NCBI GenBank assembly: GCA_951406725.2
Contig: OX597831.1
Coordinates: forward strand, 65,534,001-65,598,000
Direction of reading: 5' to 3'
DNA from: Octopus vulgaris
Taxonomy: Eukaryota
Length of the DNA stretch: 64,000 bases
The position numbers and the translations under genes were made by a program. The notes under the pieces are model-generated. The model was not told the origin of the DNA. It saw only the letters and a program-made list of their open reading frames with translations, and ran no database searches. Shown in pieces: positions 33,749 through 57,910 of the stretch; positions within the stretch are counted from its first letter, which is position 1, and the number at the start of each line of letters is the position of its first letter.

Positions 33749-34327
33749 CACTACTGTTGCTGCTGTTACTGCTGCTGCTGCTGTTGTTGTTGGTCGAAAG
33801 GCTATAGTTCTGCTACCACAACACTTAACAGCTGTCCATTGTCTGTTTCTTGCATATTTCACTCCCTTTTTCTCATCTCTCGAGAGGAAAACACACAACA
33901 CACATACACATACACACACATACACACACACACATACACACACACACACACACGCACACACGCGAGCGAGTGTATATATATATATATACATACGTGTGTA
34001 CGTTTCTATATGTGTTCGTGTGTTGCATGTGTATGTGTCCCAACATCTTTTTACCGCGAACTTTACCATTTGCGCTTACCTATCTCCTCTCTTCTCCTGG
34101 AATCAGCAATTACAGACTCTTCCGTGCGCTCTGGAAGTGTGTGTGTGTGTCCATGCATGTGTATATGTGTGCGTGTGTGTGTGTTATGCTTTTCCGCACA
34201 GTCTATGTGTGTCGTTTATTCTTCCCTATCTAGACGTTTGTCTTTCGGATAAACAGCAGGATCGTATCTGACTGGGTCTTTGCTGGTCTGCTTCAGCGTA
34301 TTTTACCCACCTTGTCACACTCGCAAC

Positions 34328-34413
34328 ATGTCTCAAGCAGAGATTGGAACTATAAGTGAACTCCACTTACATCGTATGAATAGGAATCGGCGCCATACCC
34401 TGGCCAATGTTCG
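34328..34413 (+). CDS. PDE4: Alternative first coding exon of cAMP-specific phosphodiesterase PDE4 (dunce orthologue); phase-2 intron follows
   Basis: gcaacATG context, MSQAEIGTISELHLHRMNRNRRHTLANV-R, donor CG|gtgagt. It resembles, from memory, the Drosophila dunce isoform start MQAEQGSIGDLQKYHSRYLKNRRHTLANVR-FDVENG. The downstream common exon is not seen in the window. Confidence 0.8.
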
Positions 34414-34581
34414 GTGAGTACATTATTTTTACTCCTCTTTCATCCTCTGCTTCTACTATTTTTATCGACATAGCAACATCGCTTAGCGCTACTCCTTTCA
34501 ATTTCTACGCTGCTGTCAATTCTGTTACAACCATGTCGAACTATAACCGAACAGAATATACTTGTGTGTAGTGTGCGGTGC

Positions 34582-34659
<78 letters not shown>

Positions 34660-36196
34660 ATGTGAGTGTGTGTGTGTGAGTGTGTTAGTATGTGAGTGTG
34701 AGTGAGTGTGTTAGTATGTATGTGCGTGTGTGTGAGTGTGTTAGTATGTGTATGTGTGTGTGTGTGAGTGTATTAGTATGTGTGTATGTGTGTGTATGAG
34801 TGTGTTAGTATGTGTGTGTGTGAGTATGTGAGTGTGTGTGTGTTAGTATCTGTGTGTATGTATATATATATATATGTATGTATATGTGTGTGGGTATGTG
34901 TGTTGCTGTGTGTGTATATGCATGTCTGTGTCTCTGTGTGTATAATGTGCATTTGAGTGTACTTGTATATGTATTTGAATGTGTGAGTATGTGTATGTGT
35001 GTGTTTATGCATATGCGTATTTATGCTAGCGTGTATGTGCGTTATACTTATCTGTTTGTGCGTATGTGTGTACGTGTGCATGTATACGTGTGAGCGTGTG
35101 TGAGAGAGAGAAAGAGAGAGAGAGAGAGGGGGAGAGAGAGAAAGGGAAAGAGAGTGAATCAGTGTTGTTTGTGTAGTGAAGTTTTAGTAACTTACGATCA
35201 AACTATTATAAATACTTCTTTCTTCGACTCTACCGAAATAGACTGCCACGGCAGAGACGTCAACTATAACTAATCATGTGTGTGTGCGTGTGTGTTTGTG
35301 TATGTACGTGTGTGTGTGTGTGTGTGTTTATATGTGTGTGTGTGTGTGTGTGAATAAGCAATGTGTCGTTGATGGTGACACTGTACCCATCTCTGATCTA
35401 GATGGTCGTTGTAGACAAATGGTGACAGATGGCACTAGCCAATAGAGTAAATGTTAACACTTTCCTCTTTCTCTCTAGCTCTGAAATTTATTACCAACAT
35501 CCTTTACAGCTAGTCAACCTGGTTTTTTTTTTTTTACTCATCCAAACAGACAGCTGTGTACTACATGAAACATTAGCTCTTTATTTTAGTGCACTAGATA
35601 TGTGTGGACAACTAAAATAAACAAACTTCATACTGCTTGCTGATAAATATTGCAATATTAGAGTGTAATCACTGTTTACTGTTTCAAGGGGTTGTACCCT
35701 TAATTACGTTATCATCTGGTTGTAATTAACGTGTTGCTAAGATGTATAAATAAATAACAATAAAAATAAATTCGGATGTATAGCAAATCTGTGGGCTCGT
35801 TTATATTTTGTTGTCAGGTAAAGATTGTTGAGTGCTTTTACAGCGAACTTGTGAAAATATTTCATCTGTACTTTCAACACTTGTTGAACTGATTCTTTGG
35901 TTTGTTATGCTATACAACAGATTTTCATATTCACACCTGTTGTACATCTAGAACACTGGCTGTACAATAATATAAAGACGTCATATTCTGATGTATACGC
36001 AAGCAGAGGAAAAAGGAAAAAGGAATTAAAAAAACACTATGTAAAAATCATTATTAGATATATTTACTGGAGGTGCTCGATGTATTATTCGTTGTAACTT
36101 TCAATGTAAACAAATAAATAGTGTCTGCTGCACATAAACGCATAATTGCGCAGTCACGCACACACTCGCAGTCACACACACACACGCGCGCAGTCA

Positions 36197-36234
<38 letters not shown>

Positions 36235-36976
36235 AACACACACTCACACACATCATATATACAGTTCCACTTTCTATTTCTCAGACGATGATACGAATTA
36301 CGAACATGGGTGGGAGAATATTTACCCAGGGAGCTTTCTGCCTTACTCCAAGAAGTATAAAAGAGTTTCTAATCAAACTGAGATTATCAAAACAATTAGT
36401 TGACAACCCCCCCCCCATTTAACGAGTATTTAAAATCTAGAAAAAAAAACCCCCATAGACAAGGGAGATAACTCCAATGACATCAATTCATCGAAATTCT
36501 TGAACAATAAAAAAATAATGCTGGTTGTAAATGGATCAGGATCCTAGGTTTGTCTTTTTTATAGGATTTAGTGAACAGTAGCGTCTTAACCACGAGAACA
36601 CCTAATTTGACAGAAACGTGTCCGTTTCTTTCACCTGTTGGCCTCAAAGAACAATCTGCATTTATTGCAGTTATTTCAGGAGCTTGTTGTGTTTTATAGA
36701 TTATTAAACACCCGAGAAGGAGAGTTTGTGCTCTGATTGCTTTGATGACCTCAGTTGACCCCAAAGTTTTTTTTTTTTAACTCACTATATTACGTACCGT
36801 ATTTATACTTCATATGCAGAAGGCATATCAAATAATAAAAAAAACCCCTGATATTTCCTCCATTCATTCATATTATTGATGTCCTTAATCAGTGTCGCTA
36901 TGCGCCCTTTATTTCTACACGTATTGGTCACTATTTGTCTTGCCAACTAAAATAGAATATACTCAGTCGAGGACTA

Positions 36977-37395
36977 GGATCGTTTCGGTTTGAACGGCAG
37001 TTTTTTCTAGCGGTGTCATATGAAATTGTCCCCCGTAATTATGACCCTAGTATCGATCTATTGCATTTCAATCTGTTTTAGGGTTAGGGTTAGTTAGGGT
37101 TAGGGGTGGGGGGAAGGGTATCTTTTTTCCTTCAGAAATGTAAATAAATCCAATCTGTTTCTTAAACGAGGGACATATTCATAAGGCACAGAATGTTTTT
37201 TACCTCAACGGACGTCAGTGATTGGTTGAAATTGCAGAAATTGAAGAAAAAAACCGACAAATATCTTACAATTTTCTCAATAAAGCCAAGAGAAAAAGAT
37301 GTTTTATAAACACATTCTACCAGTATACGAAGTTTAAAAGTGTTTAGTTACCTGGAAATTATCTTAAAAAACTGCCGTTCAAACCGAAAAGATCC
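36977..37395 (-). mobile_element. GGATC-TIR MITE, complete, 8-bp TSD
   Basis: TSD gaggacta at 36969-36976 and 37396-37403, with internal ttaggg repeats. Confidence 0.93.
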
Positions 37396-37739
37396 GAGGA
37401 CTATATTATGCTTCAGTTATTAAGGTCTCCTAAGCATGTTACCTGTTCCCATCAGTTGGCTTTAGAGACAAAGATTCATTGCGCACAGAGTTCAAAAACT
37501 TCGATCAACTTGATCTTACTGTAATTATCACCCTTGCTCGTTGGTTTTAGACTTTAAGCATCTGTAGAGGGAGCTTTTTTTCTAGTAATTGCTTGCTTGG
37601 ACGAAGTTTTCATTTCACTACAATACATATAACAAACATATTTGCACCGACACAAAAAAAAAACCTTCACAAATGCCTGTAAACTTTCACATACCCAAAC
37701 CTGCTTATATATATGTGCGTATGGATATATGTAGGTACT

Positions 37740-37781
<42 letters not shown>

Positions 37782-37819
37782 ATATATATCTACATATACA
37801 TATGTACACACACACACTC

Positions 37820-37850
<31 letters not shown>

Positions 37851-37916
37851 CATACATACATATATATATACATGTGTATATGTACATATATGTACATATA
37901 TATATATTTATATATA

Positions 37917-37969
<53 letters not shown>

Positions 37970-38046
37970 CGGAGTAAACACATAAATGTGAAACAAGGTG
38001 GAAAAAAAAGTACTCAAATACCAGTGGTAGAGTAATATGCTTTAAA

Positions 38047-38117
<71 letters not shown>

Positions 38118-38224
38118 CATACATATATATATATACATATATACACATGTATATATAAGCATTTTTGTTTATTTATCTATCTGTGTGTGTGTGTGTGTAT
38201 ATGTATACACTTATATACATGCGA

Positions 38225-38545
38225 AGGGGTGTGATTTCGTAGTTAGGGTATTCGGCTTGCGATCGTAAGGGCGTGAGTTCGAAAAACCCTCGGCGCGTTG
38301 TGTCCTTAATGCAGACATTTTATTTCACGTTGCTCCAGTCAACTTAGCTGCCAAAAACGAGTTGTACCAGTAATTCGAAGGGCCATCCCAGTAGTATTCT
38401 GTGTCACACTGAATCTCCTCGAGAACTATGTTAAGGGTACGCGTGTCTGCGGGGCACTCGGCTATTTTCACGTTAATTTCACGAGGAGGCTGATACGTCG
38501 ATCGGATCAATTGGAACCCTCGTAGTCGTAACCGATGGAGGGCCA
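38225..38545 (+). mobile_element. Diverged tRNA-derived SINE family C
   Basis: 3' block gagaactatgttaagggtacgcgtgtctg...ggaaccctcgtagtcgtaaccga is shared with the 43071 and 48102 copies. Confidence 0.7.
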
Positions 38546-38630
38546 GTTATACATGTGTATATATGTATAAATATATATGTATATATATTTATATACATAA
38601 TCAAAAATAAGCAACAAGAATAACTCCGGT

Positions 38631-38721
38631 AATTTGGTACAATTGTTTCGCACTACATCATTTTATTAAAAGTTGTAAGTATTACAGCAGATTTAAGATG
38701 CTGAGTGCTCATCAGCCAATT
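38631..38721 (-). ncRNA. Type I hammerhead with long stem II
   Basis: Minus: AATTGG CTGATGA GCACT [49 nt] AGTGC GAAA CAATTG TA CCAAATT. Confidence 0.8.
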
Positions 38722-38997
38722 ATATAGGTTTTCCAATAATGCAAAAGCTTTCAAATCATTATAGAGAAGGTAGATATACAGATAAAGATGTAGACTTAAA
38801 TTTTAAGAACATATGAGGTTGTGAAGTCCAGCCACTGACTGACCAAGCTATGGTTGTATCTAACTGCTATATTTTTGATTATAATCACCCCGTAAAATTT
38901 TATGGATAACACCATACAAAATTCTGGTGCATCTAAATTAAGTACCATATTCATTTGAATCTAAACTGTTGCTGAAATTATATATATATATACATAC

Positions 38998-39050
<53 letters not shown>

Positions 39051-39071
39051 TACATATACATACATACATAC

Positions 39072-39122
<51 letters not shown>

Positions 39123-39153
39123 TATACATATATACATACATACTCATAAATAT

Positions 39154-39400
39154 TCATATATGATTTCTTTCAGCCATTTCCGATGATTGGCAGAATTGGC
39201 TATTAAGATATTGTATGATATTGTAGCTTAGTACAAATGATAGCATGTTTGAAAAGAGATATTTGTATACAGTATCAATATCAAAATTCTGCACTAAATT
39301 TAATCGAAAGGAGTCACCTATGGCATAGGTATAGTAAAAGCTACAAATCATCAACCGTGATATAATAAGAAACAAGTAATATCTTCGCCTTGTAATTCTT
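39154..39400 (-). mobile_element. Decayed PLE RT fragment upstream of the 38631 hammerhead
   Basis: VQNFDIDTVY and FVLSYNIIQYLNSQFCQSSEMA resemble the PLE FD..LY and L..N.F.F....Y.Q..G.AMG motifs. Confidence 0.45.
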
Positions 39401-39885
39401 TAACAAAGGTTAAAGTCAAACTGAAGCTGTTTCAGAAGCATTTTTTTTATCCATAAATAACAATCCTCTTCAATGATGCCTAAATGGGAGGTTGCGTGCA
39501 CTTCTTGTGATTTTTTTTCTCCAACAAAATTTTAAATTTTCAATTCACTCGAGGAAAATATTTTTCATGATGTAATCGAATTATTCATCAATAAAAAATA
39601 TTCTTGAAACCGCTGAAACGAACCTTAACCCATTTCTGTTGGATCTGGAACTTGCATTGGATCGAGAACATGCATACCTGTGTGCATCGGTATATAATTA
39701 TATATACATGCATAGTTATAGCCTTGGGCTTATTTGTGGGAACATGTACATAAGTATGTGGGAGTATGAATATGCCCGTATATGCACGGATATGTAGGGT
39801 TGTATTTGTGTATGGTATATATATATGTATGTGACGAACTCGACCCTGACTTGGTGTCCTTAATATTACGAATCTTATATACATC

Positions 39886-39922
<37 letters not shown>

Positions 39923-40690
39923 GGCGAAAGTAGTCTAGTGATTCTAGAGACGCTCATGGGGCAGTTATCTCCCCTGTCAGTGTATATATATGCTGCTCGC
40001 TTCTTACAGCATTAAGAGTTTTTAACTCTTATTTCTAGCAATATAGTTGCTTGGGCATCGTCAGTCACAATCAGTGACGATAAAAATTTTTCCTTTATGG
40101 TATTATATTGCGCCTAGCTGTTTATATTAATTTTTGATATACGCATTAGCATTTCGCAAAATCAACCAGAAATTAATAGCTATCGCCAAGCTAACACAGC
40201 AGTCCAGAAAAATAGGACGAATGTTGTCGTTGATTAGCTCCAAGAGGCCATCGCCTCTAGCTAGCTATATGACACACAAACCTGTGTCGATTCGTCCTAT
40301 TTTTCTAGACTGCTATGTTAGCTTGGCGATAACTATTAATACCCAGTACTACTGCTGTATTCTCCTTTAGAGAGATTTAGAAATAATAATATTTCTAGTT
40401 TTGAAAGCCATAAATTTTTATGGTAAAACATATATATACCGAAAGCCCGATTTAGCCAAACCATCGACGGTTTGAGCAGTCATTAATGACGAACTATGAT
40501 TGATAGGCAAAACTAGTCTAGTGATCCTAGAGACGTTTATGTGGGCGGTTATCTCTCCTATCAGTATATATGCACTTCGCGCGCTTTTTACAACGTTAAA
40601 AAATTTTAACTCTTATTTCTTGCAATATAGGTGACGATAAAATTTTCCTTTTATGGTATTATATTGCACTTAGCTGTTTATATTAATTTT
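39923..40690 (+). repeat. Direct repeat (~190 bp; 39923-40135 and 40506-40690), pLTR-like, with decayed hammerhead
   Basis: Shared tagtctagtga...cctttatggtattatattgc...tttatattaatttt. Confidence 0.7.
40172..40340. mobile_element. Small MITE with ~50-bp TIRs at an ATTAAT site
   Basis: attaatagctatcgccaagctaacacagcagtccagaaaaataggacgaat is inverse to the last 50 nt. Confidence 0.8.
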
Positions 40691-41197
40691 ACACACACAT
40701 ACACATACACATGCACACACACATACACATACACACATTTACACACACACATACATAGATATAGATATAAATATTATGTATATGTATAAATGTGTGTATA
40801 TTTATGTATATATACATACATATATACATATATGTGTGCGTCTGTGCTTGTGTGTGTAATTTATAGTAAAAAGCTGCATAAGTGACGGAAGCGCTCAAGA
40901 GACCCAGAGTTTCGTTCCGAGCACTTTGCTTCGAGATGAAACTCTTAGTCTTTGAGTCACGATTGTTACACACACACGCAGCACACACTATACACACACA
41001 CATATACTTCTGTTACATACTGGACTGTGACTTCAGTGCGAGGGGACCTTACCTTATTACACTCTTAAGGATTATGTTTCGATGACAAGCGTCTGGGAAT
41101 ACTCTGTCTCTTACACTTTAATTGCAAGTGACGGAACATTCATGTATAGAGAGTGTACGTATGTGTATATGTGTGCATGTGTATATGTGTGCATGTG

Positions 41198-41260
<63 letters not shown>

Positions 41261-41343
41261 CAGGTGTGCGCTAGGCGTGTGAATAAGCATGAAATAATGT
41301 AAAAGGTAAAACTCCTTTCTGCCTATCCTTCGAACCCGCCTTT

Positions 41344-41447
<104 letters not shown>

Positions 41448-41974
41448 TTGTGTGTCACTGACACTGTTCCGCTTTCTTTACGTCATTAATATCAATTGAA
41501 AGCCATGGACCCTCACATCATATTTTTATAAATGTGTGACGAGCAAGAGGTCAAGTCGTGCCTAATCAAAATCTCCACCCAGTTTTGATTATCAGTTGAT
41601 GCAACAACAGTTATGCACCTAATCCTCCCGCCAAATGGAGGTCAACGCTTCTTTCCGTTCTTGCCCTTAAAATGTAAGTCTTTCGTACCAAATCAATAGA
41701 AAACTTATACAAAATAATAATAATTGATCCTCGAGGTGACTTAATAACTGGTGCAAAATACTGATTTCTGTTTTTTGTTTATACGAGGCTGAATTTATGA
41801 GAGAGATGAAATAAGATTTTGTGGCGTTAATGTTTTCCCCTGGCGAATTTGAAGAGAAACGATGAGGTTTCAAATTTAATGTATTCGTCCCATGTTAGGG
41901 GTTAACTAAATGAGAACCCAAGAGGCTAAACTTTGCAAGAGCTAATATTTCTTAATTATTCTTTTATTCTTATA

Positions 41975-42589
41975 TTGTTACTTGTTTCAGTCATTTGACT
42001 GCGGCTATGCTGGAGCACCACATCACAAAGTTTATTTAGTCGAAGAAATCAACCCCAGGACTTTGTAAGCCTAGTACTTATTCTATCGGCCCCCTTTTGC
42101 CGAACCTTTAAGTTATTGGGGGGTGTAAACACACAAACATCGGTTGTCAAGTGATGGTGTGGGGATAAACACAGTTACAAAGACACACACACACACACAC
42201 TCTCACATACACACATATATATACGACGGGCTTCTTTCAGTTTCCGTCTACCAAGTCCACTCACAAGACTTTGGTCAGCCCGAGGCTATAGTAAAAGATA
42301 CTTGCCCAAGGTGCCACGCAGTAGGACTGAATCTGGAACCGTGTGGTTGGGAAGCAAGCTTCTTACCACACACCCACAGTTTATTAATGTTCAAAGGATC
42401 TAAATTTGTATATTAAAAGTAAATATAGGTGCAGGAGTGGCTGTGTGGTAAGTAGCTTGCTTACCAACCACATGGTTCCGGGTTAAGTCCCACTGCGTGG
42501 CACCTTGGGCAGGTGTCTTCTACTATAGCCTCGGGCCGACCAAAGCCTTGTGAATGGATTTGGTAGACGGAAACTGAAAGAAGCCCGTC

Positions 42590-42640
<51 letters not shown>

Positions 42641-42862
42641 CGTGTGTGTTTGTGTGTCTGTGTTTGGCCCCCCTAGCATTGCTTGACAACCGATACGGGT
42701 GTGTTTATGTCCCCGTCACTTAGCGGTTCGGCAAAAGAGACCGATAGAATAAGTACTAGGTTTACAAAGAATAAGTCCCGGGGTCGAGTTGCTCGACTAA
42801 AGGCGGTGCTCCAGCATGGCCGCTGGTAAATAACTGAAACAAGTAAAAGAGTAAAAGAGTAA
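41975..42862. mobile_element. Head-to-head pair of SINE family A copies (minus 41975-42372, plus 42427-42862)
   Basis: Both carry the full family A blocks in opposite orientation. Confidence 0.9.
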
Positions 42863-43070
42863 ACACAAAACAGAATATATATAGAGAAAGAAAAAGCCAC
42901 AAAAAAATATGAATGTAATGAAAATTTCTTTTTTAAAAAATTAAAAAAATTCGATATTTATCATGAAATCTGCAAAGGAGTGTCTGATGAGTGGCTTTGA
43001 GCGAAAAATGACTTGGAAACCCTGATGTTCTTTTTCTGTGTCAGGTCATTGATTAGATGGAGGTGGGGGT

Positions 43071-43454
43071 TGGAGGCGCAATGGCCCAGTGGTTAGGGCA
43101 GCAGACTCGCGGTCGTAGGATCGCGGTTTCGATTCCTAAACCGGGCGTTGTGAGTGTTTATTGAGCGAAAACACCTAAATCTCCATGAGGCTCTGGCAGG
43201 GGGTGGTGGTGATCTCTGCTGTACTCTTTCACCATAACTTACTCTCACTCTTACTTCCTGTTTCTGTTGTACCTGTATTTCAAAGGGCCGGCCTTGTCAC
43301 TCTCTGTGCCACGCTGAATATCCCCGAGAACTACGTTAAGGGTACACGTGTCTGTGGAGTGCTCAGCCACTTACACGTTAATTTCACGAGCAGGCTGTTC
43401 CGTTGATCGGATCAACCGGAACCCTCGTCATCGTAACCGACGGAGTGCTTCCAT
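43071..43454 (+). mobile_element. tRNA-derived SINE family C
   Basis: A-box tggcccagtggtt, B-box-like ggtttcgattcc, approximate TSD tggagg(t/c)gggg. Confidence 0.88.
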
Positions 43455-44089
43455 TGGAGGCGGGGTTTGAGGAAATAAATCAAAACAAGTAAAACCAATG
43501 ACTTGTAAGGGATTATAGTCGTGATAAGGAACGGACCTGACAAAGTATGAAATGAAGGTAAAAGAGAAGAGGGGTGAAGAAATGTCCGGTGATATGAATG
43601 TGTTTAGGTGGAGTAGACAGAGATCTGTTGTAGTGAAAATAGGAAAGAGAGAGAGAGAGAGAAAAAAAAAACAGACAGTGGTCGTCTGTATATGAATGGT
43701 TGTAGTTGTGGATATTTACATACGAAATGAGAAAATACACACAACACACACACACACACACACAAACGCACACACATATACACGCAGATATACATACACA
43801 GACATACACACGCACATTTTTAGTAGTTGGTCGAGGTGTTGATCCTATTTACTATTATAAACTTTGATGTTGTGGAGTCATCATGAGAGGTCAACAGAGA
43901 TTGTAATACTTAACTTTGGAGGGAAAGTTGTAAACTATTTATAATTAACGCAGAAATAGCTTTTCATAGTTTTGGAGCTGGGGAATGAGACTAATTTGTT
44001 CTTTTCTCATTGTCGGGGTTTTTCAAAATATCTGTTTATTGTTGGGGGAAGTTCAAGCCTGCTTTACAGTGATAATTTCTATGAGAAAG

Positions 44090-44497
44090 GGATCTTTTCG
44101 GTTTGACCGGCAGTTTTTAAAATAATTTCCACGTAACTAAACACTTTTAAACTTCGTATACTGGTAGAATGTCTTTATAAAACATCTTTTTCTCTTGACT
44201 TTATTGAGAAAATTCTATAGTTTGTAAGATATTTGTTGTTTTTTCTTCAATTTCTGCAATTTCAACCAATCAATGACGTCTATTGAGGTGAAAACATTCT
44301 GTGCCGTATGAATATGTCCCTCGTTTAAGAAACAGATTGGGTTTATTTACATTTGTGAAGAAAAAAAGATACTCTTCCCCCCACCCCTAACCCTAAAACA
44401 GATTGAAATGAAATAGATCGATACTAGGGTCATAATTATGGGTGACAATTTCATATGACACCGCTAGAAAAAACTGCCGTTCAAACCGAAAAGATCC
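44090..44497 (+). mobile_element. GGATC-TIR MITE, plus solo inverted left end at 44648-44687
   Basis: Both TIRs are present. The solo end shares the private variant ttgaccggcag. Confidence 0.9.
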
Positions 44498-45016
44498 TGA
44501 TCGTGATACGAACTATTTCATATTCGAAACATGGAGCTATTGAAACCATTTCAAGCATTGGAATAAAATACAACGCTAAGTTTAAATATTCTACACTTCG
44601 TTATACTACAATCAATTCTATAATAGTTCAGGACTTCAAAATTCAACAAATTATTTTAAAAAACTGCCGGTCAAACCGAAAAGATCCCACGATCGTAACT
44701 TATTCTATATTTCCATAATTATTGCTTTGTTGGCGAGTTTGATTAGGATTTAGCCAGGATATCAGTGGAAAGGTTGGAATATAGCTAGAATACTAGAGTT
44801 TAAATTAGAGGTGCCTATGTACTCTGTAAGAAAATATTAAAATGAAATTATAATAGTATTTGGTTTATAAATTTATTAAATACTTTCCTTTATTGTAGAC
44901 TGTGACTGCTTTCAGTAACATAATTCAGGAAAGCCAACACAAATTCTCATGTCATCTATGAATAGACGATGTATCGTCTATTCATAGATGAAATAAAATT
45001 TATTATAACTTATAAT

Positions 45017-45192
45017 ATGCTTAGCGGTATTTCGTCTGTCTTTACGTTCTGAGTTCAAATTCCGCCGAGGTTGACTTAGCCTTTCATCCTTTCAGGGTCG
45101 ATAAATTAAGTACTAGTTGCGTACTGGGGTCGATCTAATCGACTGGCCCCTTCCCAAAAATTTAGGGCCTTGTGCCTAGAGTAGAAAAGAAT
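45017..45192 (+). mobile_element. SINE family B, 5'-truncated
   Basis: atgcttagcggtatttcgtctg...cttgtgcctagagtagaaaagaat. Confidence 0.85.
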
Positions 45193-45738
45193 TTTCTTTT
45201 ACTTATAAAATTTACCTCTGATTATCCAAAACTAATTTTCTGAGGAGACAACTTGATCTCAGTATCGTATTGGTACACTCCGAGATATCAAACATCCTAG
45301 ATTTCCGTCTTGATCATTTCCTTTCCTCGTAATCGACTATTTCAAATTATGACATTTTAGATCATATTTTACATAAACATATTGAATAATTAATGGCTTT
45401 CAGTGTTTATAAAGAGAAAGCAGCGAACATATGGACATCAGCGAAGTAAATTTTAGTCTTTCTCACAAAGCAATTACCAAGTGAAAATTTAAATAATATT
45501 TTTTTTTGTTTTGTCGTGTTTTACTGTTTGGTAGATTTTATTGTTTTCCAGATGGATGCTGGTGAATATCCAGAGGAATTTTATGAACGGGTTTCTATTT
45601 TTGTATCAAGAAATTGCAAAACTGCTTAAAACTGTAATCTCTTTATCAGAGCGCTGAAATATAAACACTAAATAATACATACTGCTTTCCAAAGGGGTGT
45701 CTGTGTGTTGGGAAAATACCATTAAAAAAAAAAGAAAC

Positions 45739-46065
45739 AGGGCGCAGGAGTGGCTGTGTGGTAAGTTGCTTGTTTACCAACCTCATGGTTCCGGGTTCAG
45801 TCCCACTGCGTGGCACCTTGGGCAAGTGTCTTCTACTATAGCCTCGGGCCGACCAAAGCCTTGTAGTAACTGTTGTTAGATATTTCTTTGTGAAGGCGCA
45901 GGAGTGGCTGTGTGGTAAGTAGCTTGCTTACCAACCACATGGTTCCGGGTTCAGTCCCATTGCGTGGCACCTTGGGCAAGTGTCTTCTACTATAGCCTCG
46001 GGCCGACCAAAGCCTTGTGAGTGGATTTCGTAGACGGAAACTGAAAGAAGCCTGTCGTATATATG

Positions 46066-46098
<33 letters not shown>

Positions 46099-46319
46099 GT
46101 TTGTGTGTCTGTGTTTGTCCTCCTAGCATTGCTTGACAACCGATGCTGGTGTGTTTATGTCCCCGTAACTTAGCGATTCGGCAAAAGAGACCGATAGAAT
46201 AAGTAGTGGGCTTACAAAAGGATAAGTCCCGGGGTCGAGTTGCTCGACTAAAGGCGGTGCTCCAGCATGGCCGCAGTCAAATGACTGAAACAAGTAAAAG
46301 AGTAAAAGAGAAAGAGTAA
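45739..46319 (+). mobile_element. SINE family A 5' piece (45739-45863) plus full copy (45893-46319)
   Basis: Two heads ggcgcaggagtggctgtgtggtaag. Confidence 0.9.
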
Positions 46320-46997
46320 ACTCTAATTGTTCTTGCTATATATGTGTCGGAAGAAAATTGTTGATAATCTGTGGAAACTCTTGTGAGAGAGAAGATAAGG
46401 GGGAATGTATTTATCGTAGTGCTTCAAAATTTGGAGATTAGCGACAGATGGAAACAATTAGGGGTCAATAAGGAGTTCGGTGGAAAACTGGTTATCAGAC
46501 AGAAAAACTGGATGAGCGAATTAGTGAGAGAAACTAAGTTGTAGCTAATTATGGGTAATGGAGGATTGTTGGTATAAATTGCAAATATGATGCGTCATTA
46601 TAGAAGAGCGACGCCAAGCGAGCTCTAAAGATGATCAATAAGAAAGGTTTTATCATTCAATTGCATTATCTTGATCCTGACCTAAGATTTTTGGAAAAGT
46701 CCTCTGTCGATGATGGCTTTTGTTGAACATTAACAAATAGCGAGAACTATTCTTCGTATGAGAATTGTTGATATTAGAGGATAGTGCGTCGGATTATCTT
46801 GGTCGTAGAGTGCTTATGACCTTTGAAGGCCCTCCTAGGTTTGTGAGATTGATGCAGTTGATTAATATAACGTTTGTATCAGAATGCTGACATGAATGGG
46901 GAGGGCATTTGTTGAAAGGATCTCTACCAATATTCTTATCATAATAGATGCTCACATCAATGCCTCTATGAAGATCTAAAGTAAGGTGCTATATCAT

Positions 46998-47453
46998 CAT
47001 CATCATCATTGTTCGACCGTGGTCGAGACAATGGAATTTACTATGCTACGCCAGACTTCACGGTCCATCATGGCATTACGGAGGTCCTGTTGCTGGATGC
47101 CTGTATCCCTGGAGATTACATCAGGATAGGAGAGTGTGCGCGAGTAGATTGCTTCCAGAGGAGAAGAGTAGAAATTATTTCTTTTTCAGTTCTACAACAA
47201 TGTCCAGCAAACTGGACTCTCCTACCTTTCACAAGAGATGATACAGGTGGTAGTTTCCCATATATTTGTACTTTGGTTGGATGGCGCTTCCACGAGAGAT
47301 TTTGAGCTCTCATAAGGAGGTGAGTGTAGGTTTCATCCAACCGCCTCTCAAGCTTCTTTGATAACGTCCAGGTTTCTGAGCCATATAGTAGAATTGGTTC
47401 GACTGTGGCTTTGAAGATTTTAAGTTTGAAGTCTCTACTTAGATTTGATGACC
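46998..47453 (-). mobile_element. RTE LINE 3' fragment with (GAT)n tail
   Basis: IFKATVEPILLYGSETWTL...RRVQFAGHC, TSD atatcat (46991-46997, 47454-47460). Confidence 0.9.
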
Positions 47454-48100
47454 ATATCATAGTAACATGTCAACAACGAAAACACCTGTGACAGCCTATT
47501 TTATAATCCCTATAGACATTCTCCAACATAGTGAACTGTTAATAATTTCTCTCAAATCTTTTAATAATTTATATCGTAAAAATGTAAAATATGTGTTCGT
47601 TAATATGAACACAGAAATTAATTGTCAATAGAAATATTTGACAATGGAATACCAAAGATATCACAATAATTTTGGTAATAACTAGCGTCTGACTATTTAC
47701 ATAAGTATGTCAATTTTTCTTAGTTTTGTCCGAAACAATTTGTATTCTTGTTAAAAGAGTTCCAAAGAAATAATGAGCTTATTCATAATAGAATAGAGGA
47801 GAAATATTTACTTTGTTACTATTATTGCTGAAGCAGTCGGTTTAACAACTAGAAGCTCCAAATATATTGGAAAACACTTCCGTCCAGTTGACGTATGATA
47901 TATTATTACATCCTCTCATCTGACCATGTGATATTTCCTTCACAGTAAGTTTTTGTATGTTTCTAAATTCTGATGAAGCTTTTGGAAAAAGCGAATATGA
48001 TGAAATGGTAGAGCGAAGCATTTGCTCTTCTCTTCATCATAGTTTTAGAAACTAATGATGCTGTTACTATTTTTTTGTGTATATATTTCTATGGACTGAG

Positions 48101-48472
48101 TGTGGAGACGCAATGGCCCAGTGGTTAGGGCAGCGGACTCGCGGTCGTAGGATCGCGGTTTCGATTCCCAGACCGGGCGTTGTGAGTGTTTAATGAGCGA
48201 AAACACCTAAAGCTCCACGAGGCTCCGGCAGGGATAGTGGTGATCCCTGCTGTACTCTTTCACCACAACTTTCTCTCACTCTTACTTCCTGTTTCTGTTG
48301 TGCCTGTATTTCAAAGGGCCGGCCTTGTCACGCTGAATATCCCCGAGAACTACGTTAAGGGTACACATGTCTGTGGAGTGCTCAGCCACTTACACATTAA
48401 TTTCACGAGCAGGCTGTTCCGTTGATCGGATCAACCGGAACCCTCGTCGTCGTAACCGACGGAGTGCTTCCC
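48101..48472 (+). mobile_element. SINE family C with 9-bp TSD
   Basis: TSD atggactga (48091-48099, 48473-48481). Confidence 0.9.
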
Positions 48473-48499
48473 ATGGACTGAACAGAAAAATAATGTTCT

Positions 48500-49070
48500 T
48501 ATGTTTATGTTACAGTAAATGTTCCCGGATGTTTGGAAGTAATTGTATAGGAACCATGTGGATAGCAACTTGCGGAATGGAAAGAGGTGCCCTTGCATGT
48601 CCTGGTCGCCTTTAGTTTTATGCTTTTTGTTATTATGGAGATAGTCCGTGATCGGTTCAGCCAGTTTTCCGAAGTGTTATGTTCTTGTGTTCTTGAAGTG
48701 TGTTGTGATTTATTATAGTGTGACTAGAGCCAAGTAACATTGGCAAAATCTATGATGGATCTCATACAGAGAACCGATGCAAAGTAGTGCTATTTAATTT
48801 GCTTTTTTTCGCCAGGCTTTCAACGTGTAATCAAGCAGGTAATACGTCAGTAGATTCTCTCGATTAACTGCGTCGCTTCTTCTATATTATGATTCCACTT
48901 TGTTGAGCAGGATATTACGTATTGCAACATGCAGTAGTTGATCGTATGAGAAATAAAATGGCATTCTCTCTGCTCTCTGCTATATTTCCGTTCACCTGCT
49001 AGGTTTGGTGGTTGACATGGTCTCGTGACAGTCGCTGCTCCTCTGTACCTATTGTTGGTGATATGCATCC
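48500..49070 (-). mobile_element. Decayed Jockey/CR1-type LINE fragment
   Basis: CMRSIIDFANVTW resembles the RPILEYAxxxW motif. Many stops. Confidence 0.4.
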
Positions 49071-49104
49071 CTACACAGTGACTAGGCTAATGTTATAATT
49101 GATA

Positions 49105-49525
49105 CGAGATGCGTTCAAAAAGAACCCGACTTTATTTTCCTCCGCTAAAACAAATGCCGCACGGGCAAAATCCTTTGCGTGGGAGGTGATGCCACCCTTT
49201 CTGCTCAACTATTTAGGCCGCGTCAGTTCCCGGTTGTTACGCCTAGAGTACAGACTCTATGCGCCCTCGTCGGATTTTCGTTTCACGAACGATAACCGAA
49301 TGCATCTAACAGAGACCATAAACCCTGTGTCTAATCATCGGTGACGATGGTCTTCATGTAGTCAGGGTTGTGATTTGTACTGTCCAACATGTCCTGAGCA
49401 ATTTACTTATGGAGTTGCTTCTGCAAGTGTATGAAGGGTGACGTTGCCTCCCACCCAAATGACCCACGCGACATTTCTTTTTGCGGGTTAAAAAATAAAG
49501 TCGGATACTTTTTGAACGCACCTCG
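49105..49525. mobile_element. Mariner-derived MITE
   Basis: TA|cgagatgcgttcaaaaagaacccgactttatttt ... aaaataaagtcggatactttttgaacgcacctcg|TA. Confidence 0.9.
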
Positions 49526-49542
49526 TATCATTTTATTGTGAA

Positions 49543-49941
49543 CTATCAGTATCGCCCGGCGTTGCTCGGGTTTGTAAGGGAAATAACTATATAAGCATTT
49601 TTAGAGAGTTATAGCCAAAAAATAGCAAAAAAAATGCATTAAAAATGGAAAAAAAATGATGGTAATTTTTTTTTAAATCGTTGACTCATCGTAGACATTT
49701 TTAGAGAATTACTTCCCTTATATAATAGCGAAAAAAATGCATTAAAATGGAAAAAAATGATGGTAAATTTTTTTCAAAATCGTAGACTCATCGTAGACGC
49801 GCCCTAATACCCAGAAGGGCTCGATATGAATCACGACTATAAGATACCCGGTTTTGGTTAAACTGCACCGCAAAATGTGGGAGTAGTTAGGAATCTAAAT
49901 CGTAGGAGACAGACACACAACTTGACTTTTATATATAAAGA
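49543..49941 (-). mobile_element. Non-autonomous Helitron
   Basis: Minus strand begins A|TCtttatatataaaag and ends with the hairpin cccgagcaacgccggg plus gatag|T (CTAG variant). Internal tandem duplication. Confidence 0.8.
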
Positions 49942-50049
49942 TATATTTTTTTGATGGTTTAATACAGTTTGATCATGCATTTACAATGAAAATGGGACAG
50001 TCCACAAAAAATTGCAGGATGTGTCATCCACACCTTTACCTATTTCGAA

Positions 50050-50505
50050 AATATACCATTCTGTTATATCATTGCACAAAGGAATTTATTGATTATGCTA
50101 GCTTCTGGTATGTGCAACATACTATATGACTCCGTACTTAACTTCTGGTAGGACCAATTCTTCACCAATAGCATTAGGCGTTCTGGATTTCGCAATCACT
50201 AATTAAATTTTGTAAGAGGCGCATAACCATAATATCTTGACACTGGTACGAATTAAAACACACTTGACATTGTCAGCTGTTTACAAAATTAGCCTGGAAA
50301 TGCTTCAAAATAAGATGGATCTTATTTGTCTTGTCAGCATGGACGTTTTTCAAGTGCTTTTCTAATCTTGAATGTTTCATGAATTCATTGGAAAATACTT
50401 ATTGGTAATCCAGGCAAATAACTTGTTTCTAAGTGATGGAATAAAACCTTAAATTTAATATTCGATACGTTATAGCCAGAATTTCTTCTTAGATTCTGCT
50501 GTTGT
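50050..50505 (-). pseudogene. hAT-Charlie/Buster transposase N-terminal remnant
   Basis: AESKKK..GFIPS..FSNEFMKHSRLEKHL..HADK and ASYKI*LVIAKSRTPNAIGEELVLP match ZBED5/Charlie-type motifs. Confidence 0.7.
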
Positions 50506-50708
50506 TGTATGTATAAAAAATATATTATAACAGATACATAAATTGTTTATTTTTTGCAATATTAATTAAGATATGCTATCACAATATTCAATATAGGCAA
50601 CAGTTATATGAGGACTAATAATTTGTATTTTGTTCTATTTATTCATTTCTCTTTACCCTCCAACATTTCCTACAACAACCTTGCTTTGCAATGTCACTCT
50701 TGTATGTA

Positions 50709-51010
50709 TGTTAGGGCATCCTTCTAGGAGAAGGTAACTCAGGTAACTGGGATAACTCCGACATAAAACCTGCGGCTCAGTGGTTACCGATGATGTTGAC
50801 TTTTTCTTCTTTTCGGATTATGGCTGCTGTTGCTTAGTGAGTGGGATTGACCTTTCCTCACTTAAAAAAAATCTTCTTGCACAGGAATTGCACGATAACA
50901 ACATTGATTAAGTTTCGTGCAATGGCCATACTCGATAACGAGGGAGCAGCCACCATGTATGTATGTATGTATGTATGTATGTATGTATGTATGTATGTAT
51001 GTATGTATGT
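50709..51010 (+). mobile_element. Short RTE-related element ending in (TATG)n
   Basis: gggcatccttctaggagaagg...ataaaacct resembles the RTE 5' UTR block at ~23836-23877. Confidence 0.45.
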
Positions 51011-51559
51011 ACGTCGTATGTGTGCATGCATAAGTATGTATGTAGGTAGGCAGGCAGGCAGGTATTCATATGCCCCACATATACGTGTTAATGTATGCAC
51101 ACGAATAAATACACGCGAACACGTGCACATACGTATGCACAAGGCACACACATACACATCTGCATCCCTGACACGCACACACAGCTGGAAGGATGATGAC
51201 ATTATATATTTCAATTTCAGTATCAATACGAATACCACGGTTGTTCCACATTCTCTGCCGAAATTGTCCAAAAGCTGCACCGCTTTTCTAACATGAGATT
51301 ACATTTTAACATCACTGCAGGCACTTGAGAACTGTGCACTTCCAGGATATTTAAGATTGTTTACATATTTTAGTTCAGTCTTACATCTATTCCCAGAAGT
51401 ATGTCTTAGGACAGGTTGATGCAATACTTCTGTTTCGTCAGTGCATTGCAGTGCAGTGAGGCGAAGGTTGTTGCAGGCCTTTGGGAACTGATACGGGGCT
51501 AATATTGCGCAAGCAATCCGTAACCATCTACAAACAATAGTTCACAGTTATTTAAATGC

Positions 51560-52400
51560 TTAAATTTGGTTTTTGTTTACAGTGTGCGAAGATTAAGCAC
51601 TCTGCTGTTATATCACGGCTTAATGTCAATTCAGGTGGAAGTGTTCTAACAGAAAAAATAAATGATGCTGAAAAGGTCAGGTGTTAAGATGCCACCTTGC
51701 TTTACAGCATTTGTGACAGAATATTGTACATATATCGTGACGTATATTTGCCATTTAAATATGGCTAACCCCTAAGGGTGGATGCTACTGTAGTTTGTAG
51801 CCCCAGGAGGACACCTCCTCCAGCTGGCTATAGACACACTTAGCCAGCTGGAGGAAGTGTCCTCCTGGGGCTACAGACTACAGTAGCATCCACCCTTAGG
51901 GGTTAGCCATATTTAAATGGCAAATATACGTCACGATGTGTTGCAGCTACTGTTTATAACTCGCTCTGAGATTTATATTGTACATATATGTTTCCACTCA
52001 CCTGTTTGTGTATATGGTGCACCAATTTTACGATGCACAAACGCGGGTGGACAACCCCTTTCAAAACGGAATCAACATTGGCTTTCAGGCAGGTGATTGT
52101 TAGTGGTAGTAGGGTGAACGAGACGATTCAATGGTTGAAAAGAAGTAAACACCTCTGTTATTGTCGCATGACTCTCTGTTATCCTTGTTCTTGTACAGGT
52201 GAATGAGTGTAGCATTCTTGAATTCTTGAGGATGGCACCTGCTGACCACATGAAGGCAACTAGCTCTACTGCATATAGCTCTACTGCTCCCAAGAACTGT
52301 GTTCCTGGCAATCTGCACCAGATTGTCAATCGCTTTCTCATTTACGTTGGACTGTATGTTAAGAACGTTCAGTACAAGTCCAACTCATTTTTCATGTATA
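51560..52400 (-). mobile_element. Decayed RTE RT fragment interrupted by a fold-back insertion
   Basis: QEFKNATLIHLYKNKDNRESCDNNRG and VTNAVKQGGILTPDLFS. Confidence 0.75.
51734..51937. repeat. 97-bp inverted repeat with 10-nt loop, flanked by a 15-bp direct repeat
   Basis: 51734-51830 vs 51841-51937 with two mismatches. atattgtacatatat at 51721-51735 and 51975-51989. Confidence 0.92.
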
Positions 52401-52540
52401 AGCTTCTTTGTGCTTTTCCATCTGCCGAGAGAAGGGGCAAAACACTCACGCACGCTTTGAAAAAATTAATTCGTGCATTTTTTTTGTGCTCCCTAAATCC
52501 TTTTTTTCTAGCCAGTTATTTTTCCAGTTATTTTTTGTAT

Positions 52541-52948
52541 ACAGGAGTGGCTGTGTGGTAAGTAGCTTGCTTACCAACCACATGGTTCCGGGTTCAGTCC
52601 CACTGCGTGGAATCTTGGGCAAGTGTCTTCTACTAAAGCCTCGGGCCGACCAAAGCCTTGTGAGTGGATTTGGTAGACGGAAACTGAAAGAAGCCTGTCG
52701 TATATATGCATATATATATATGTGTGTGTGCGTGTGTGTTTGTGTGTCTGTGTTTTTCCCCCTAGCTTTGCTTGACAACCGATGCTGGTGTGTTTATGTC
52801 CCCGTCACTTAGCGGTTCGGCAAAAGAGATGATAAAATAAGTACTAGGCTTACAAAGAATAAGTCCTTACAAAGAATAAGACTAAAGGCGGTGCTCCAGC
52901 ATGGCCGCAGTCAAATGACTGAAACAAGTAAAAAGAGTAAAAAGAGTA
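52541..52948 (+). mobile_element. SINE family A
   Basis: Full family A blocks. Confidence 0.9.
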
Positions 52949-53661
52949 TACCCTTGAGTAATACAAACTCTTGAGTAAAATTCAGGGATGGGAAATTGAA
53001 ACGAATTCGAGTTGGTGAAAATATTTTTCATAAACTGAAATCGAACAAGCGTATGATTTAAGTTTTAAATACTGCTATTTGAACTCAAATCGATGAAAAA
53101 TATTGCTTGTTGCTTTTGTCTAGCCCTGATCAACCGTTCTAATCATGGTCATCATCCCATCAGATATAGTGTCCAACATTATGGCACACAGAACATAGTA
53201 TAGGTCATTGTATTACATTATAGTGCTAACATAATGTCTTAATCGGTAAGTCCTACGTTTGCTTTTTAAGACAACAGTATGATTTGAAGGAAATTTGGCT
53301 GCTACTTCTAGCAAGTATATCGACCACGTGTAGGCATCTCTTAGTTTGTATCCCGGGTTTTCCCACGTAACTTTGGGATGATTTTCTATTTAGCAAATCC
53401 TTTTTATGTCGGAGCTTATTGTCACTTTGACTTCGACTCGGATAACCAATACATTCCTCCGCTAAATACTGATTTCATCAAACCTCATTCTATATTATTA
53501 ATCTTCATATTTTTTCAGTTATTCCTTTGCCTACACGGATCCACGAATGGTCATAAAATTGCTCATTTCTGGATCAAAACTATGTTCCTCTAACGTCAGC
53601 TTGTTTTTTTAATTAATCTATATTTACTAAAAACTGATTGTCAAATTGTGATAAAACTTTC

Positions 53662-53871
53662 TATCTTTTACTCTTTTACTTGTTTCCGTCATTTGACTGC
53701 GGCCATGCTGGAACACCGCCTTTAATCTAGCAAATCGACCCCGGGACTTATTCTTTGTAAACCCAGTACTTATTCTATCGGTCTCATTTGCCGAACCGCT
53801 AAGTTACGGGGACATAAACACACCATCATCGGTTGTCAAGCAATGCTAGGGGGACTAATACAGACACACAA

Positions 53872-53928
<57 letters not shown>

Positions 53929-54090
53929 CGACGGGCTTCTTTCAGTTTCCGTCTACCAAATCCACACACAAGGCTTTGGTCGGCCCGAGGCTATAGTAGA
54001 AGACACTTGCCCAAGGTGCCACGCAGTGGGACTGAACCCGGAACCATGTGGTTGGTTAGCAACCTACTTACCACACAGCCACTCCTGCGC
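53662..54090 (-). mobile_element. SINE family A
   Basis: Full family A blocks on minus. Confidence 0.9.
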
Positions 54091-54811
54091 CAACTGATTG
54101 CCAAATTGTTAACAGATTAAGATATTTTTTCGCAAAAAGATGCTTTTTATCTTAAAATGACGACATTGGTTTTTAGACGTTTTAATGAGCTCACTAAATC
54201 TAAATCATTTTATATGTAGTAATTAAACCTGAATAATGAAGACGCATCGTCTATAAAATTATAAAATGATATTTCAAGCAATATTCTGTTACGAACATTC
54301 CATTAATAATGCTGTAAAATGAAATACATTTTAACACATTTTCTTCTGTTTAGTGAAGTGTGGCCTACATCGATATGTATTACAATGCATCAATTTTCCT
54401 TTCTGCTTATTGTTCAATGTATTTGTGGGTTTTCTAGAAATTGCTTAAAACATGTCAAGGGTAACTGAAAAATACTATTTTGGCTATGCGTTACAGGGAA
54501 ATTATGCTTTAGATTGGCTTGTTCAGTAATTTTATAAATTAACGTCTGATAGATCATTTCCTATTTATACAGTACGGAAATGGATTTTTCCAACTTTGTC
54601 TATTTTACTATCTTAAAGGTTAACAACAGCTTATTACTTATGGTTAGAGTTACTTTTCAACGGTATCTGCTACATATATTTATACAGGAAAGTTTTTAAA
54701 ATATAACTCTTCAATTGAACAATAGTTTTACCAATATCGAGTATATGTAAGGAGCGTTTCGAAAAATATCATCACTAGAAGCTAATTTACAGTTTGTAAT
54801 TCCGTATGAAT

Positions 54812-55213
54812 CATCATCATCATTGTTCGACCATGGTCGAGACAATGGAATTTACTATGCTACGCCAGACTTCACGGTCCATCATAGCATTACGGAGGTC
54901 CTGTTGCTGGATGCCTGTATCCCTGGAGATTACATCAGGGTAGGAGAGTGTGCACCCTCTGGTATCGCGAGTAGATGGCTTCCAGTGGAGAAGAGTAGAA
55001 ATTCTACTATATGGCTCAGAAACCTGGACGTTATCAAAGAAGCTTGAGAGGCAGTTGGATGGAACTTACACTCGCCTCCTTATGAGAGCTCAAAATCTCT
55101 CGTGGAGGCGTCATCCAACCAAAGTACAAATATATGGGTAACTACCACCTGTAGTTGCTGGACATTGTTGTAGAGCTGAAAACGAGTCAATTTCTACTCT
55201 TCTCTGGAAGCCA
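54812..55213. mobile_element. RTE 3' fragment with 5' inversion, 11-bp TSD
   Basis: Minus segment with (cat)n tail, then plus segment ILLYGSETWTL. TSD tccgtatgaat (54801-54811, 55214-55224). Confidence 0.88.
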
Positions 55214-55780
55214 TCCGTATGAATACTGTGATCTTGGAATTCTTTTGCACAATTTAATGCTTTCTAATCGTTTAGATTTTGGTTTAATATTTAATGTGAT
55301 TCTATTTCGATTTGCCATATACAACACACCTTAGCTTTACCATATTAAGAAATGCTTTTACTTCGCACGTCTTGTACTGTCTTTAAGGTTGTGAGAAACA
55401 AGCAATGGTTAAAAGATGATGATAATAGTAATAAAAATAGATTAGTAAATTCCTACAATTAAAAGAATTTCTAGAACATGTTGAAATACAGACTCAAGAC
55501 AAAATAAGTTGCCAAACGCTGTTTCAAAACAAATTACTTGTCATTTCCAAAGAATTATATTGCAATAAAAATTCATTTTCATCAATAATTGTATAAATAA
55601 AGGGCCTCAATTGACAATCAATTTACATCGAAACTGAAATCGGTATTATTCTTTATTTTTTTATAAATTTCAACTTGGAATTGAATATTTCATTTCTTTT
55701 TCTCCAATTAACACACATGACTGCAATTTGTTATCTGCATTGATTCTATTTTAGTAACTGCTGTTAGATATTTCTTTGTG

Positions 55781-55947
55781 AAGGCGCAGCAGTGGCTGTG
55801 TGGTAAGTAGCTTGCTTACCAACCACATGGCTCCGGGTTCAGTCCCACAGCGTGGCACCTTGGGCAGGTGTCTTCTACTATAGCCTCGGGCCGACCAAAC
55901 CCTTGTGAGTGGATTTGGTAGACGGAAACTGAAAGAAGCCCGTTGTA

Positions 55948-56043
<96 letters not shown>

Positions 56044-56250
56044 TGTGTCTGTTTGTCCCCCCCAGCATCGCTTGACAACTGATGTTGGTGTGTTTACGTC
56101 CCCGTAACTTAGCGGTTCGGCAAAAGAGACCGATAGAATAAGTACCAGGCTTGCAAATAATAAGCTCTGGGGTTGATTTGCTCGACTATAAAGGCGGTGT
56201 TCCAGCATGGCCGCAGTCAAATGACCGAAGCCAGTAAAAAAGTAAAGAGT
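55781..56250 (+). mobile_element. SINE family A
   Basis: Full family A blocks. Confidence 0.9.
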
Positions 56251-56439
56251 ATACACAAAAGTAATGTCTTCACTTGCTCCATACTTATAGCAACAGTTAA
56301 ACAAGGTTTGCAAATTTTTGAAGCTTTAAATTATCGACCCCGAAAGGATGGACGGTAAGGTCGGCCACGGCAGGATTTGGGCTTAGAGCATACAGAGCCG
56401 GAACTAATAACAGATGCTGGCGTCTTATTTGATCTGTTT

Positions 56440-57263
56440 ATATTTAGCTCCAGAAGGGCAGCGAGCTGGCAGAATCGTTAGCACGCCGGGCGAAGTGCTT
56501 AGCGGCATTTCGTCTGTCTTTAGGTTCTGAGTACAAATTCCGCCGAGGTTGACTTTGCCTTTCATCCTTTCGGAGTCGATAGATTAAGTACCAGTTGCGT
56601 ACTGGGTCGAGCTAATCGACTGGTCCCTTCTGCCAAAATTTCGGGCTTTGTACCTAGAGTAGAAAAGAATATTTAGCTCCAGATGGGCGGCGAGCCGGCA
56701 GAATCGTTAGCATGCCGAGCGAAATGCTTAGCAGTATTTCGTCTGTCTTTTCGTTCTGCTGCCGGGCTCAACTTTGCCTTACATCATTTTAGGGTCGATA
56801 AAATAAGTAGCACTCGAGTATTAGGATTGATGCAATCGACTTCGTTCCCCACCACCATTGCTGGTCTTGTGCAAAAATCTAAAATCAATATTTAGCTCCA
56901 CAAGGCGGTGAGATGGCAGAACCGTAAGAGGCCGGGCAAAATACTTAGCGGCATTTCGTCCATCTTTACGTTCTGAATTTAAATTCTTTCGGGGTTGATA
57001 AGGTAAATACCATTTGAACTCTGGGTTCGACGTAATCAACTAGCCCCCCCCCTCCCTTGAATTTGCTGGCCTTGTGCCAAAATTCGAAACCAATATTTAG
57101 CTCTTCAAAGCGGTGAGCGGGGGAAATGTTTAGCGAAATTTCGTCCGTCTAAGTTCAAATTCCGTCTAGGTCAATTTGCCTTTCGTAGAGAAGGTGAGCC
57201 TCCTCCTCCTCCTCCTCCTCCTCCTCCTCCTCGTCGTCGTCGTCGTCGTTGTTGTTGTTGTTG

Positions 57264-57318
<55 letters not shown>

Positions 57319-57383
57319 GTTTTTTACTTTTTTCTTCAAATTTTCTTCCGTTTCTCGACGAGTGTTTTCCATACACATAGGGC

Positions 57384-57431
<48 letters not shown>

Positions 57432-57714: not shown

Positions 57715-57910
57715 TCAGCATATTGAGAATTTATTCCGAAATATTAAACAGTAATGTTTTTAAATCCAATTTCTTTTCCGTATTTGTAAAAGAAAATTTT
57801 TGAAAAGTAGAGAGATACAACGCAATTTATATATAAAATGTGACCGCGTGTGTACCGTTGGCGATTTTTTTCCCTCCGTCTTCCCTTCTTTGGATCTTTC
57901 CTTTTCCTAT

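Follow-up and report, generated by a model that had tools for sequence, protein, structure and literature searches.

Multiple first exons in PDE4 genes are textbook knowledge, and a short reading frame that opens at position 34328 of an Octopus vulgaris genomic segment raises the question of whether it is one of them and, if so, what a protein starting there would do. The segment, here called the window, is the whole stretch of 64,000 nt that was analysed (contig OX597831.1, forward strand). Our reading, which we hold with high confidence, is that the frame is an isoform-specific first coding exon of octopus PDE4 (dunce), joined in a gene model through a phase-2 donor to the FDVENG/UCR1 exon; that it likely starts a long, catalytically active isoform; and that its short basic N-terminus is a predicted kinase-regulated targeting tag.

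A short exon already present in an octopus gene model

The start codon (34328–34330) has an A at position −3, and the frame runs through 28 full codons and the dinucleotide CG to the donor GTGAGT, with RRHT as residues 21–24 (34388–34399; Table 1). The first-pass annotation had described just this architecture, namely a 28-codon exon with good start context, a canonical phase-2 donor and an RRHT motif, and had pointed out that the open reading frame track lacks it; both observations hold. A TGA at 34415–34417 ends read-through past the donor and an in-frame TAA lies 25 codons 5′ of the ATG, so that the open frame is only 54 codons long and escapes ORF lists. When the window was scanned for an ATG followed after 10–80 codons by a phase-2 GTRAG, 110 candidates were obtained (64 on the plus and 46 on the minus strand), and the 34328 exon is the one among them that combines a purine at −3 with RRx[ST]. 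The 34234–34540 stretch has no second copy within the window.

Table 1 Features of the window and the basis of each assignment
Feature	Position	Strand	Basis
Coding part of PDE4/dunce isoform-specific N-terminal exon (28 codons + 2 nt)	34328..34413	+	Sequence; P0121 identity; T. madens PDE4 similarity
5′ splice site GTGAGT, phase 2	34414..34419	+	Sequence; position kept in metagenome loci
Presumed intron towards shared FDVENG exon, >29.5 kb, end outside window	34414..64000	+	No downstream PDE4 exon in window
Probable 5′ untranslated part, boundary approximate	34202..34327	+	Sequence features
Basophilic motif R19-N-R-R-H-T24-L25, predicted phospho-acceptor Thr24 at 34397–34399	34382..34402	+	Sequence pattern
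uORF, weak-context uATG, 15 codons, in frame with main ATG	34205–34252	+	Sequence
SINE-like copies, examples	55751–56330, 42427–42870, 45864–46306, 53667–54091, 52542–52962, 58611–59006	Both strands in family	71–85% identity among copies
Transposon fragments	25300–25671 (+), 16445–16849 (−), 12404–12898 (+), 13452–14485 (+)	+ and −	Reverse transcriptase (E 3.5e-14), GIY-YIG (below cut-off), zinc knuckle

The identity of the exon is given by an 88-residue predicted protein of O. vulgaris (P0121), which was returned by a profile of the window peptide and a related metagenomic peptide (L002; 224 matches, best 120 listed). Residues 1–29 of P0121 are identical to the window peptide at 29 of 29 positions, and the protein continues into FDVENG and then into RRESF, the UCR1 PKA motif as defined in the available text of PMC5526615; RRES occupies residues 59–62, which makes Ser62 the PKA-motif serine. 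This part of the protein aligns to the UCR1 of human-type PDE4B (residues 56–87; chain 4wzi_A, E 2.7e-8), and across 89 aligned positions P0121 shares 76% identity with Tribolium madens PDE4. NCBI names it 'Hypothetical predicted protein' and UniRef cAMP-specific 3',5'-cyclic phosphodiesterase. A Pfam search of P0121 gave no match; the 88-residue model ends before the Pfam UCR stretch and lacks UCR2 and a catalytic domain. The arrangement of a unique N-terminal exon in frame with the shared FDVENG region is seen both in P0121 and in insect orthologues, and the proposal that this is an isoform-specific PDE4/dunce coding exon joining FDVENG is upheld by the octopus model and by two insect PDE4s (P0059 and P0064). 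The 34328 exon is genuine and begins an isoform of a known gene; being part of a public gene model, it is no discovery in itself.

Elsewhere in the window, no FDVENG, UCR or catalytic motif was found in six frames, and tblastn of P0121 and three full PDE4s returned nothing below E 0.28 except the 34328 exon. The intron must therefore exceed 29.5 kb. An FDVENG-like exon had been predicted downstream of 34413: the junction exists in the gene model, and no such exon occurs up to the window end. A search for expression listed no RNA data set, a blank that speaks neither for nor against expression. Sequence words from 34200–34540 were present in 20 of the 24 runs listed, seven of which (from two studies) stood at 0.63, close to the 0.59 expected if the exon side alone contributed; as word matches without alignment, these were not counted as evidence.

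The remainder of the window consists of microsatellites, a SINE-like family and retroelement fragments. The SINE-like family is dispersed: its copies number at least 10, occur on both strands and show 71–85% identity. We take the GIY-YIG fragment to be Penelope-like, and 13452–14485 is mariner-like by eye, with no Pfam match. A long stretch at 19500–21700 is almost without tandem repeats (0% in 20001–24000) and contains a word resembling a GC box (near 19545) as well as GCGCATGCG (near 20316); it is possibly another promoter or 5′ exon, and tblastn found no PDE4-type coding match in it.

Relatives of the exon in insects and metagenomes

A profile built from four peptides (the window and metagenome loci L001–L003) gave 358 matches, of which the best 120 were listed; an organism is named for 21 of these 120, in every case an insect. 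Three full-length proteins among the 120 carry PDE4_UCR and PDEase_I and begin with a related peptide, namely T. madens PDE4 isoform X10 (P0064), a Clastoptera arizonana protein (P0059) and Atheta coriaria isoform X7 (P0058), as expected from the earlier suggestion that the exon is common to insects. UCR2 and catalytic domain (PF18100, PF00233) accompany the exon start in these three insect proteins and are absent from the 88-residue P0121 and from the window. The related peptide leads straight into FDVENG in P0059 and P0064, and with 9 extra residues between in P0058. The window peptide is identical to the T. madens N-terminus at 19 of 29 positions (65.5%); its C-terminal ten residues and the junction position are the same in the insect long isoforms, whereas the insect peptide differs in its middle, is one residue longer (30) and often follows a long upstream extension absent from the window.

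Most of the listed matches (104 of 120) stop with the final residue of the exon, which is what unspliced read-through into such a donor would produce, and an FDxENG junction follows the exon in 7 of the 155 fetched proteins. Because the proteins searched had been grouped at 90% identity, isoforms distinguished by a short start alone would be concealed, so the small number of full-length matches says little. Among the full-length matches listed, another enzyme family appears once, in an OTU-containing beetle model (P0023). Together with a headcase-like protein (P0062), P0023 is an insect gene model that appends the exon to an unrelated name, and both models have probably been led astray by the long intron that follows the exon. 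The peptide that the first-pass annotation ascribes to a Drosophila dunce isoform recurs letter for letter in 22 of the 120 matches listed, including the dipterans Culicoides (P0107) and Sergentomyia (P0100).

An HMM of 35 distinct insect peptides, built without octopus or window sequence, recovered the window exon frame at E 2.7e-11, with the next best of 2686 window frames at E 0.067; the test is partly dependent, as the insect peptides came from window-derived queries. Alone, the 29-residue peptide found nothing significant in Pfam, no match among 6 candidates in a single-sequence protein search, none among 50% representatives, one chance match in the PDB (E 1.6) and, in the Atlas, weak unnamed clusters of 30–32 aa with recognition below threshold; blanks are expected because the query has 29 residues.

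We then searched metagenome contigs with a degenerate form of the last ten residues of the window peptide, in which only silent changes were permitted, and obtained three animal-like loci. All three keep an in-frame ATG 20–23 codons upstream, a similar N-terminal half and a GT after the same CG, features that lie outside the search pattern; when their N-terminal halves were scored against that of the window, 3, 17 and 39 of 20000 shuffles did as well. Within the motif, the 18 nucleotide differences all fall at codon position 1 or 3, in a search that permitted silent changes only, which speaks for conservation at the protein level. L001 and L003 are of the insect type and L002 is a third type, from some animal; like the window, L002 has a stop shortly upstream of the ATG. 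The same pattern had 0 matches in the prokaryotic genome collection, and a motif scan of viral contigs also gave 0. The exon ends in GTTCG (34409–34413 in the window) in each of the four genomic copies, with other codons permitted by the pattern, and this constancy beside the donor suggests constraint at the level of bases.

By established phylogeny, an exon shared by an insect and a cephalopod goes back to the ancestor of both, which does not imply retention in other phyla. The 155 matches listed name no organism other than insects and Octopus. Of the proposed protostome-wide distribution, insects, Octopus and one further animal contig (L002) are in place, and against it the Aplysia ApPDE4 short form has a different start, as encoded by its cloning primer (PMC6567041, available text). 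That start was accordingly rejected as an identity for the window exon: the start and residue 25–30 words of the S(N30) primers given there are unlike the window peptide and have only unrelated matches elsewhere in the window. A literature search found no paper on insect-cephalopod conservation of the exon, within a coverage that excludes most subscription papers, and the comparison may be unreported so far. The exon is notable mainly for its age and is otherwise a mostly ordinary part of a well-known gene.

Thr24 and the parallel with other PDE4 N-termini

The window peptide satisfies R-R-x-S/T-hydrophobic with R21, R22, H23, T24 and L25. From −3 to +4, all 155 fetched proteins carry identical residues, an invariance inflated by search words that came from the motif itself; position −5 is R in 96 and K in 59. 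R-R-x-T-hydrophobic is a good PKA pattern and R-x-R-x-x-T-hydrophobic is of the Akt/RSK type, and since all 155 proteins have R or K at −5, the Thr24 site fits Akt/RSK too. A conserved PKA-type site had been postulated here; the pattern is present and kept throughout this biased set, and it is not specific to PKA.

The chance that the motif is no PKA switch, and is instead an Akt/RSK-type site or a phosphorylation-independent basic motif for binding or membrane contact, comes close to even. Besides the basic residue at −5, the invariance at +1 to +4 goes beyond what PKA needs and would suit a binding surface. The peptide is also basic (pI 11.8), and electrostatics contribute to the membrane targeting of the Aplysia short form, according to the available text of PMC4580752. 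On the other side stand the quality of the PKA pattern, the position of PDE4 long forms as established PKA feedback targets (PMC11941749 and PMC5526615, in the parts available), a net charge of just about +3 and a helical hydrophobic moment of at most 0.40. This low moment led us to reject an amphipathic membrane helix in the peptide. A PP1 site of the RVxF type (consensus from general knowledge) across the junction was likewise rejected, there being no basic residue before the Val. The 88-residue P0121 was modelled at low confidence (mean pLDDT 56.9) with one weak helix at 9–19; this model only suggests that the 29-residue tail is likely to be mostly disordered. A fly head phosphoproteome is uninformative for Thr24: a text search of the PMC7264355 supplement retrieved neither the exon motif nor, as a control, RRESF, and of 34 dnc rows, 32 were covered, in which the 12 kinase-substrate rows name no sites besides S535 and S1124, on one reference isoform.

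By analogy, the nearest worked-out parallel to Thr24 is Ser13 of mammalian PDE4D3, whose context we take to be RRHS; it is a parallel rather than the same exon. In both, a short unique exon places a PKA-type site just before the shared region, whereas in the window Thr replaces Ser, the flanks differ and Thr24 presumably lies two residues further from the junction than Ser13. A PDE4D3-type (RRHSWIC) exon was rejected for the window, in which T-L follows RRH and RRHSW occurs in none of the three plus frames. Of the fly isoforms, we take Dnc-PA to be the one with a 34328-type start and Dnc-PG to be the extended form. As PMC7770493 reports in its accessible part, phosphorylation of PDE4D3 at Ser13 enhances binding to mAKAP and phosphorylation at Ser54 raises activity; the same review questions whether in heart the native partner of mAKAP is PDE4D3. 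In Aplysia, the ApPDE4 N-termini set membrane and synaptic targeting (PMC4580752, PMC6567041; available text), and the long form has a hydrophobic membrane-binding start, in contrast to the hydrophilic window peptide (GRAVY −0.84), as far as a comparison by description goes. Fly dunce is described in the available text of bioRxiv 10.64898/2025.11.29.691281 as a multi-promoter gene with five isoform classes distinguished by their N-termini, in which loss of Dnc-PA alters early memory and PA is somatic and PG also nuclear.

Where the transcript begins and what the isoform may do

Whether 34328 lies in a true first exon, with its promoter in 32900–34327 as the first-pass annotation proposed, depends on the upstream region. 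Residues precede the Met in 142 of the 149 parsed protein matches, with recurring words in 110 and 61 of those 142, a count biased towards length by a search restricted to proteins of at least 71–75 aa; the other seven, P0121 and six insect records, start at the exon Met. In an aphid protein (P0150), an upstream extension, the exon and FDVENG follow one another, and from this and the other extended matches it follows that in insects the exon Met can be internal. In exons of the insect type, the Met is often preceded in frame by a long, Ser-rich extension, both in insect proteins and in L001 (1972–2694, minus strand) and L003 (362–796, minus strand). The insect extension words are absent from the window plus frames, and the extension is absent from the window and from L002.

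It is accordingly possible, though on our estimate the less probable case, that gene and peptide are as proposed and the exon is not a true first exon. It could be spliced from one or more upstream non-coding exons, or be a 117-nt phase 2-2 cassette (34297–34413) of a longer isoform, with the promoter outside 32900–34327. Acceptor-like AGs upstream of the ATG end at 34201, 34233, 34256, 34259 and 34296; the one at 34233 follows 12 pyrimidines in 14 positions and the one at 34296 follows 10 in 14, and from the latter the 117-nt frame, divisible by 3, is free of stops. The predominance of extended matches, the aphid junction and the 30% tandem repeat content of 32900–34327 also favour this alternative. 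Against it, seven proteins including the octopus model begin at the exon Met, a stop lies in frame a short way upstream in both the window and L002, the extension words are missing from the window, and the surplus of extended matches reflects the length bias of the searched set. The uORF listed in Table 1 stops 75 nt before 34328 and could dampen translation if transcribed.

It is very improbable that the octopus exon makes only a truncated, non-catalytic product of 88 residues, as the gene model reads. P0121 does stop at residue 88, before the Pfam UCR stretch, but this stop falls one residue past the end of its alignment with full-length insect PDE4, as would be expected of a model split by a very long intron, and in insects the isoforms that begin in this way are full-length. 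That ATG and GT are paired by chance in intronic DNA rich in repeats, or that the exon belongs to some unrelated gene, is refuted by the P0121 junction and the insect PDE4 matches, and the metagenome loci and the insect HMM also speak against it, despite the 110 start-donor pairs of the window and the blank searches with the lone peptide.

Under the preferred reading, the 34328 exon as the start of a long PDE4 isoform, the working of the protein can be outlined in five steps. The exon, its ATG and its donor are present in the sequence, and the junction to FDVENG and the RRESF motif with Ser62 are known from the gene model. Continuation to UCR2 and the catalytic domain would follow from the insect isoforms with the same start, and such a long isoform would dimerise, and PKA would activate it through the serine of UCR1 (PMC11941749 and PMC5526615, available text). 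By comparison with PDE4 N-termini of mammals, Aplysia and fly, the 29-residue tail may set location or partners. Finally, Thr24 might be phosphorylated, most likely by PKA, and tune anchoring while Ser62 tunes activity, in the manner of Ser13 and Ser54 of mammalian PDE4D3, a step to which we give somewhat less than even weight.

We consider it unlikely that the whole amounts to a phospho-switch kept since the last insect-cephalopod ancestor, in which PKA acting on Thr24 would control the anchoring of a PDE4 isoform used by neurons of both the fly mushroom body and the octopus vertical lobe. Such a switch would correspond, in protostomes, to PDE4D3 Ser13 and would have a conserved binding partner. 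At the gene level, dnc is enriched in octopus vertical-lobe cells (PMC9712504, available text). Single dunce isoforms affect memory differently in fly, as the accessible text of bioRxiv 10.64898/2025.11.29.691281 indicates. Where in the cell cAMP is broken down depends on the isoform-specific N-termini of PDE4, and the last ten residues of the 29-residue tail, unchanged between octopus and insects, point to one ancient partner or kinase site. The conserved tail thereby offers a precise mutant, T24A/T24D or the matching fly residue.
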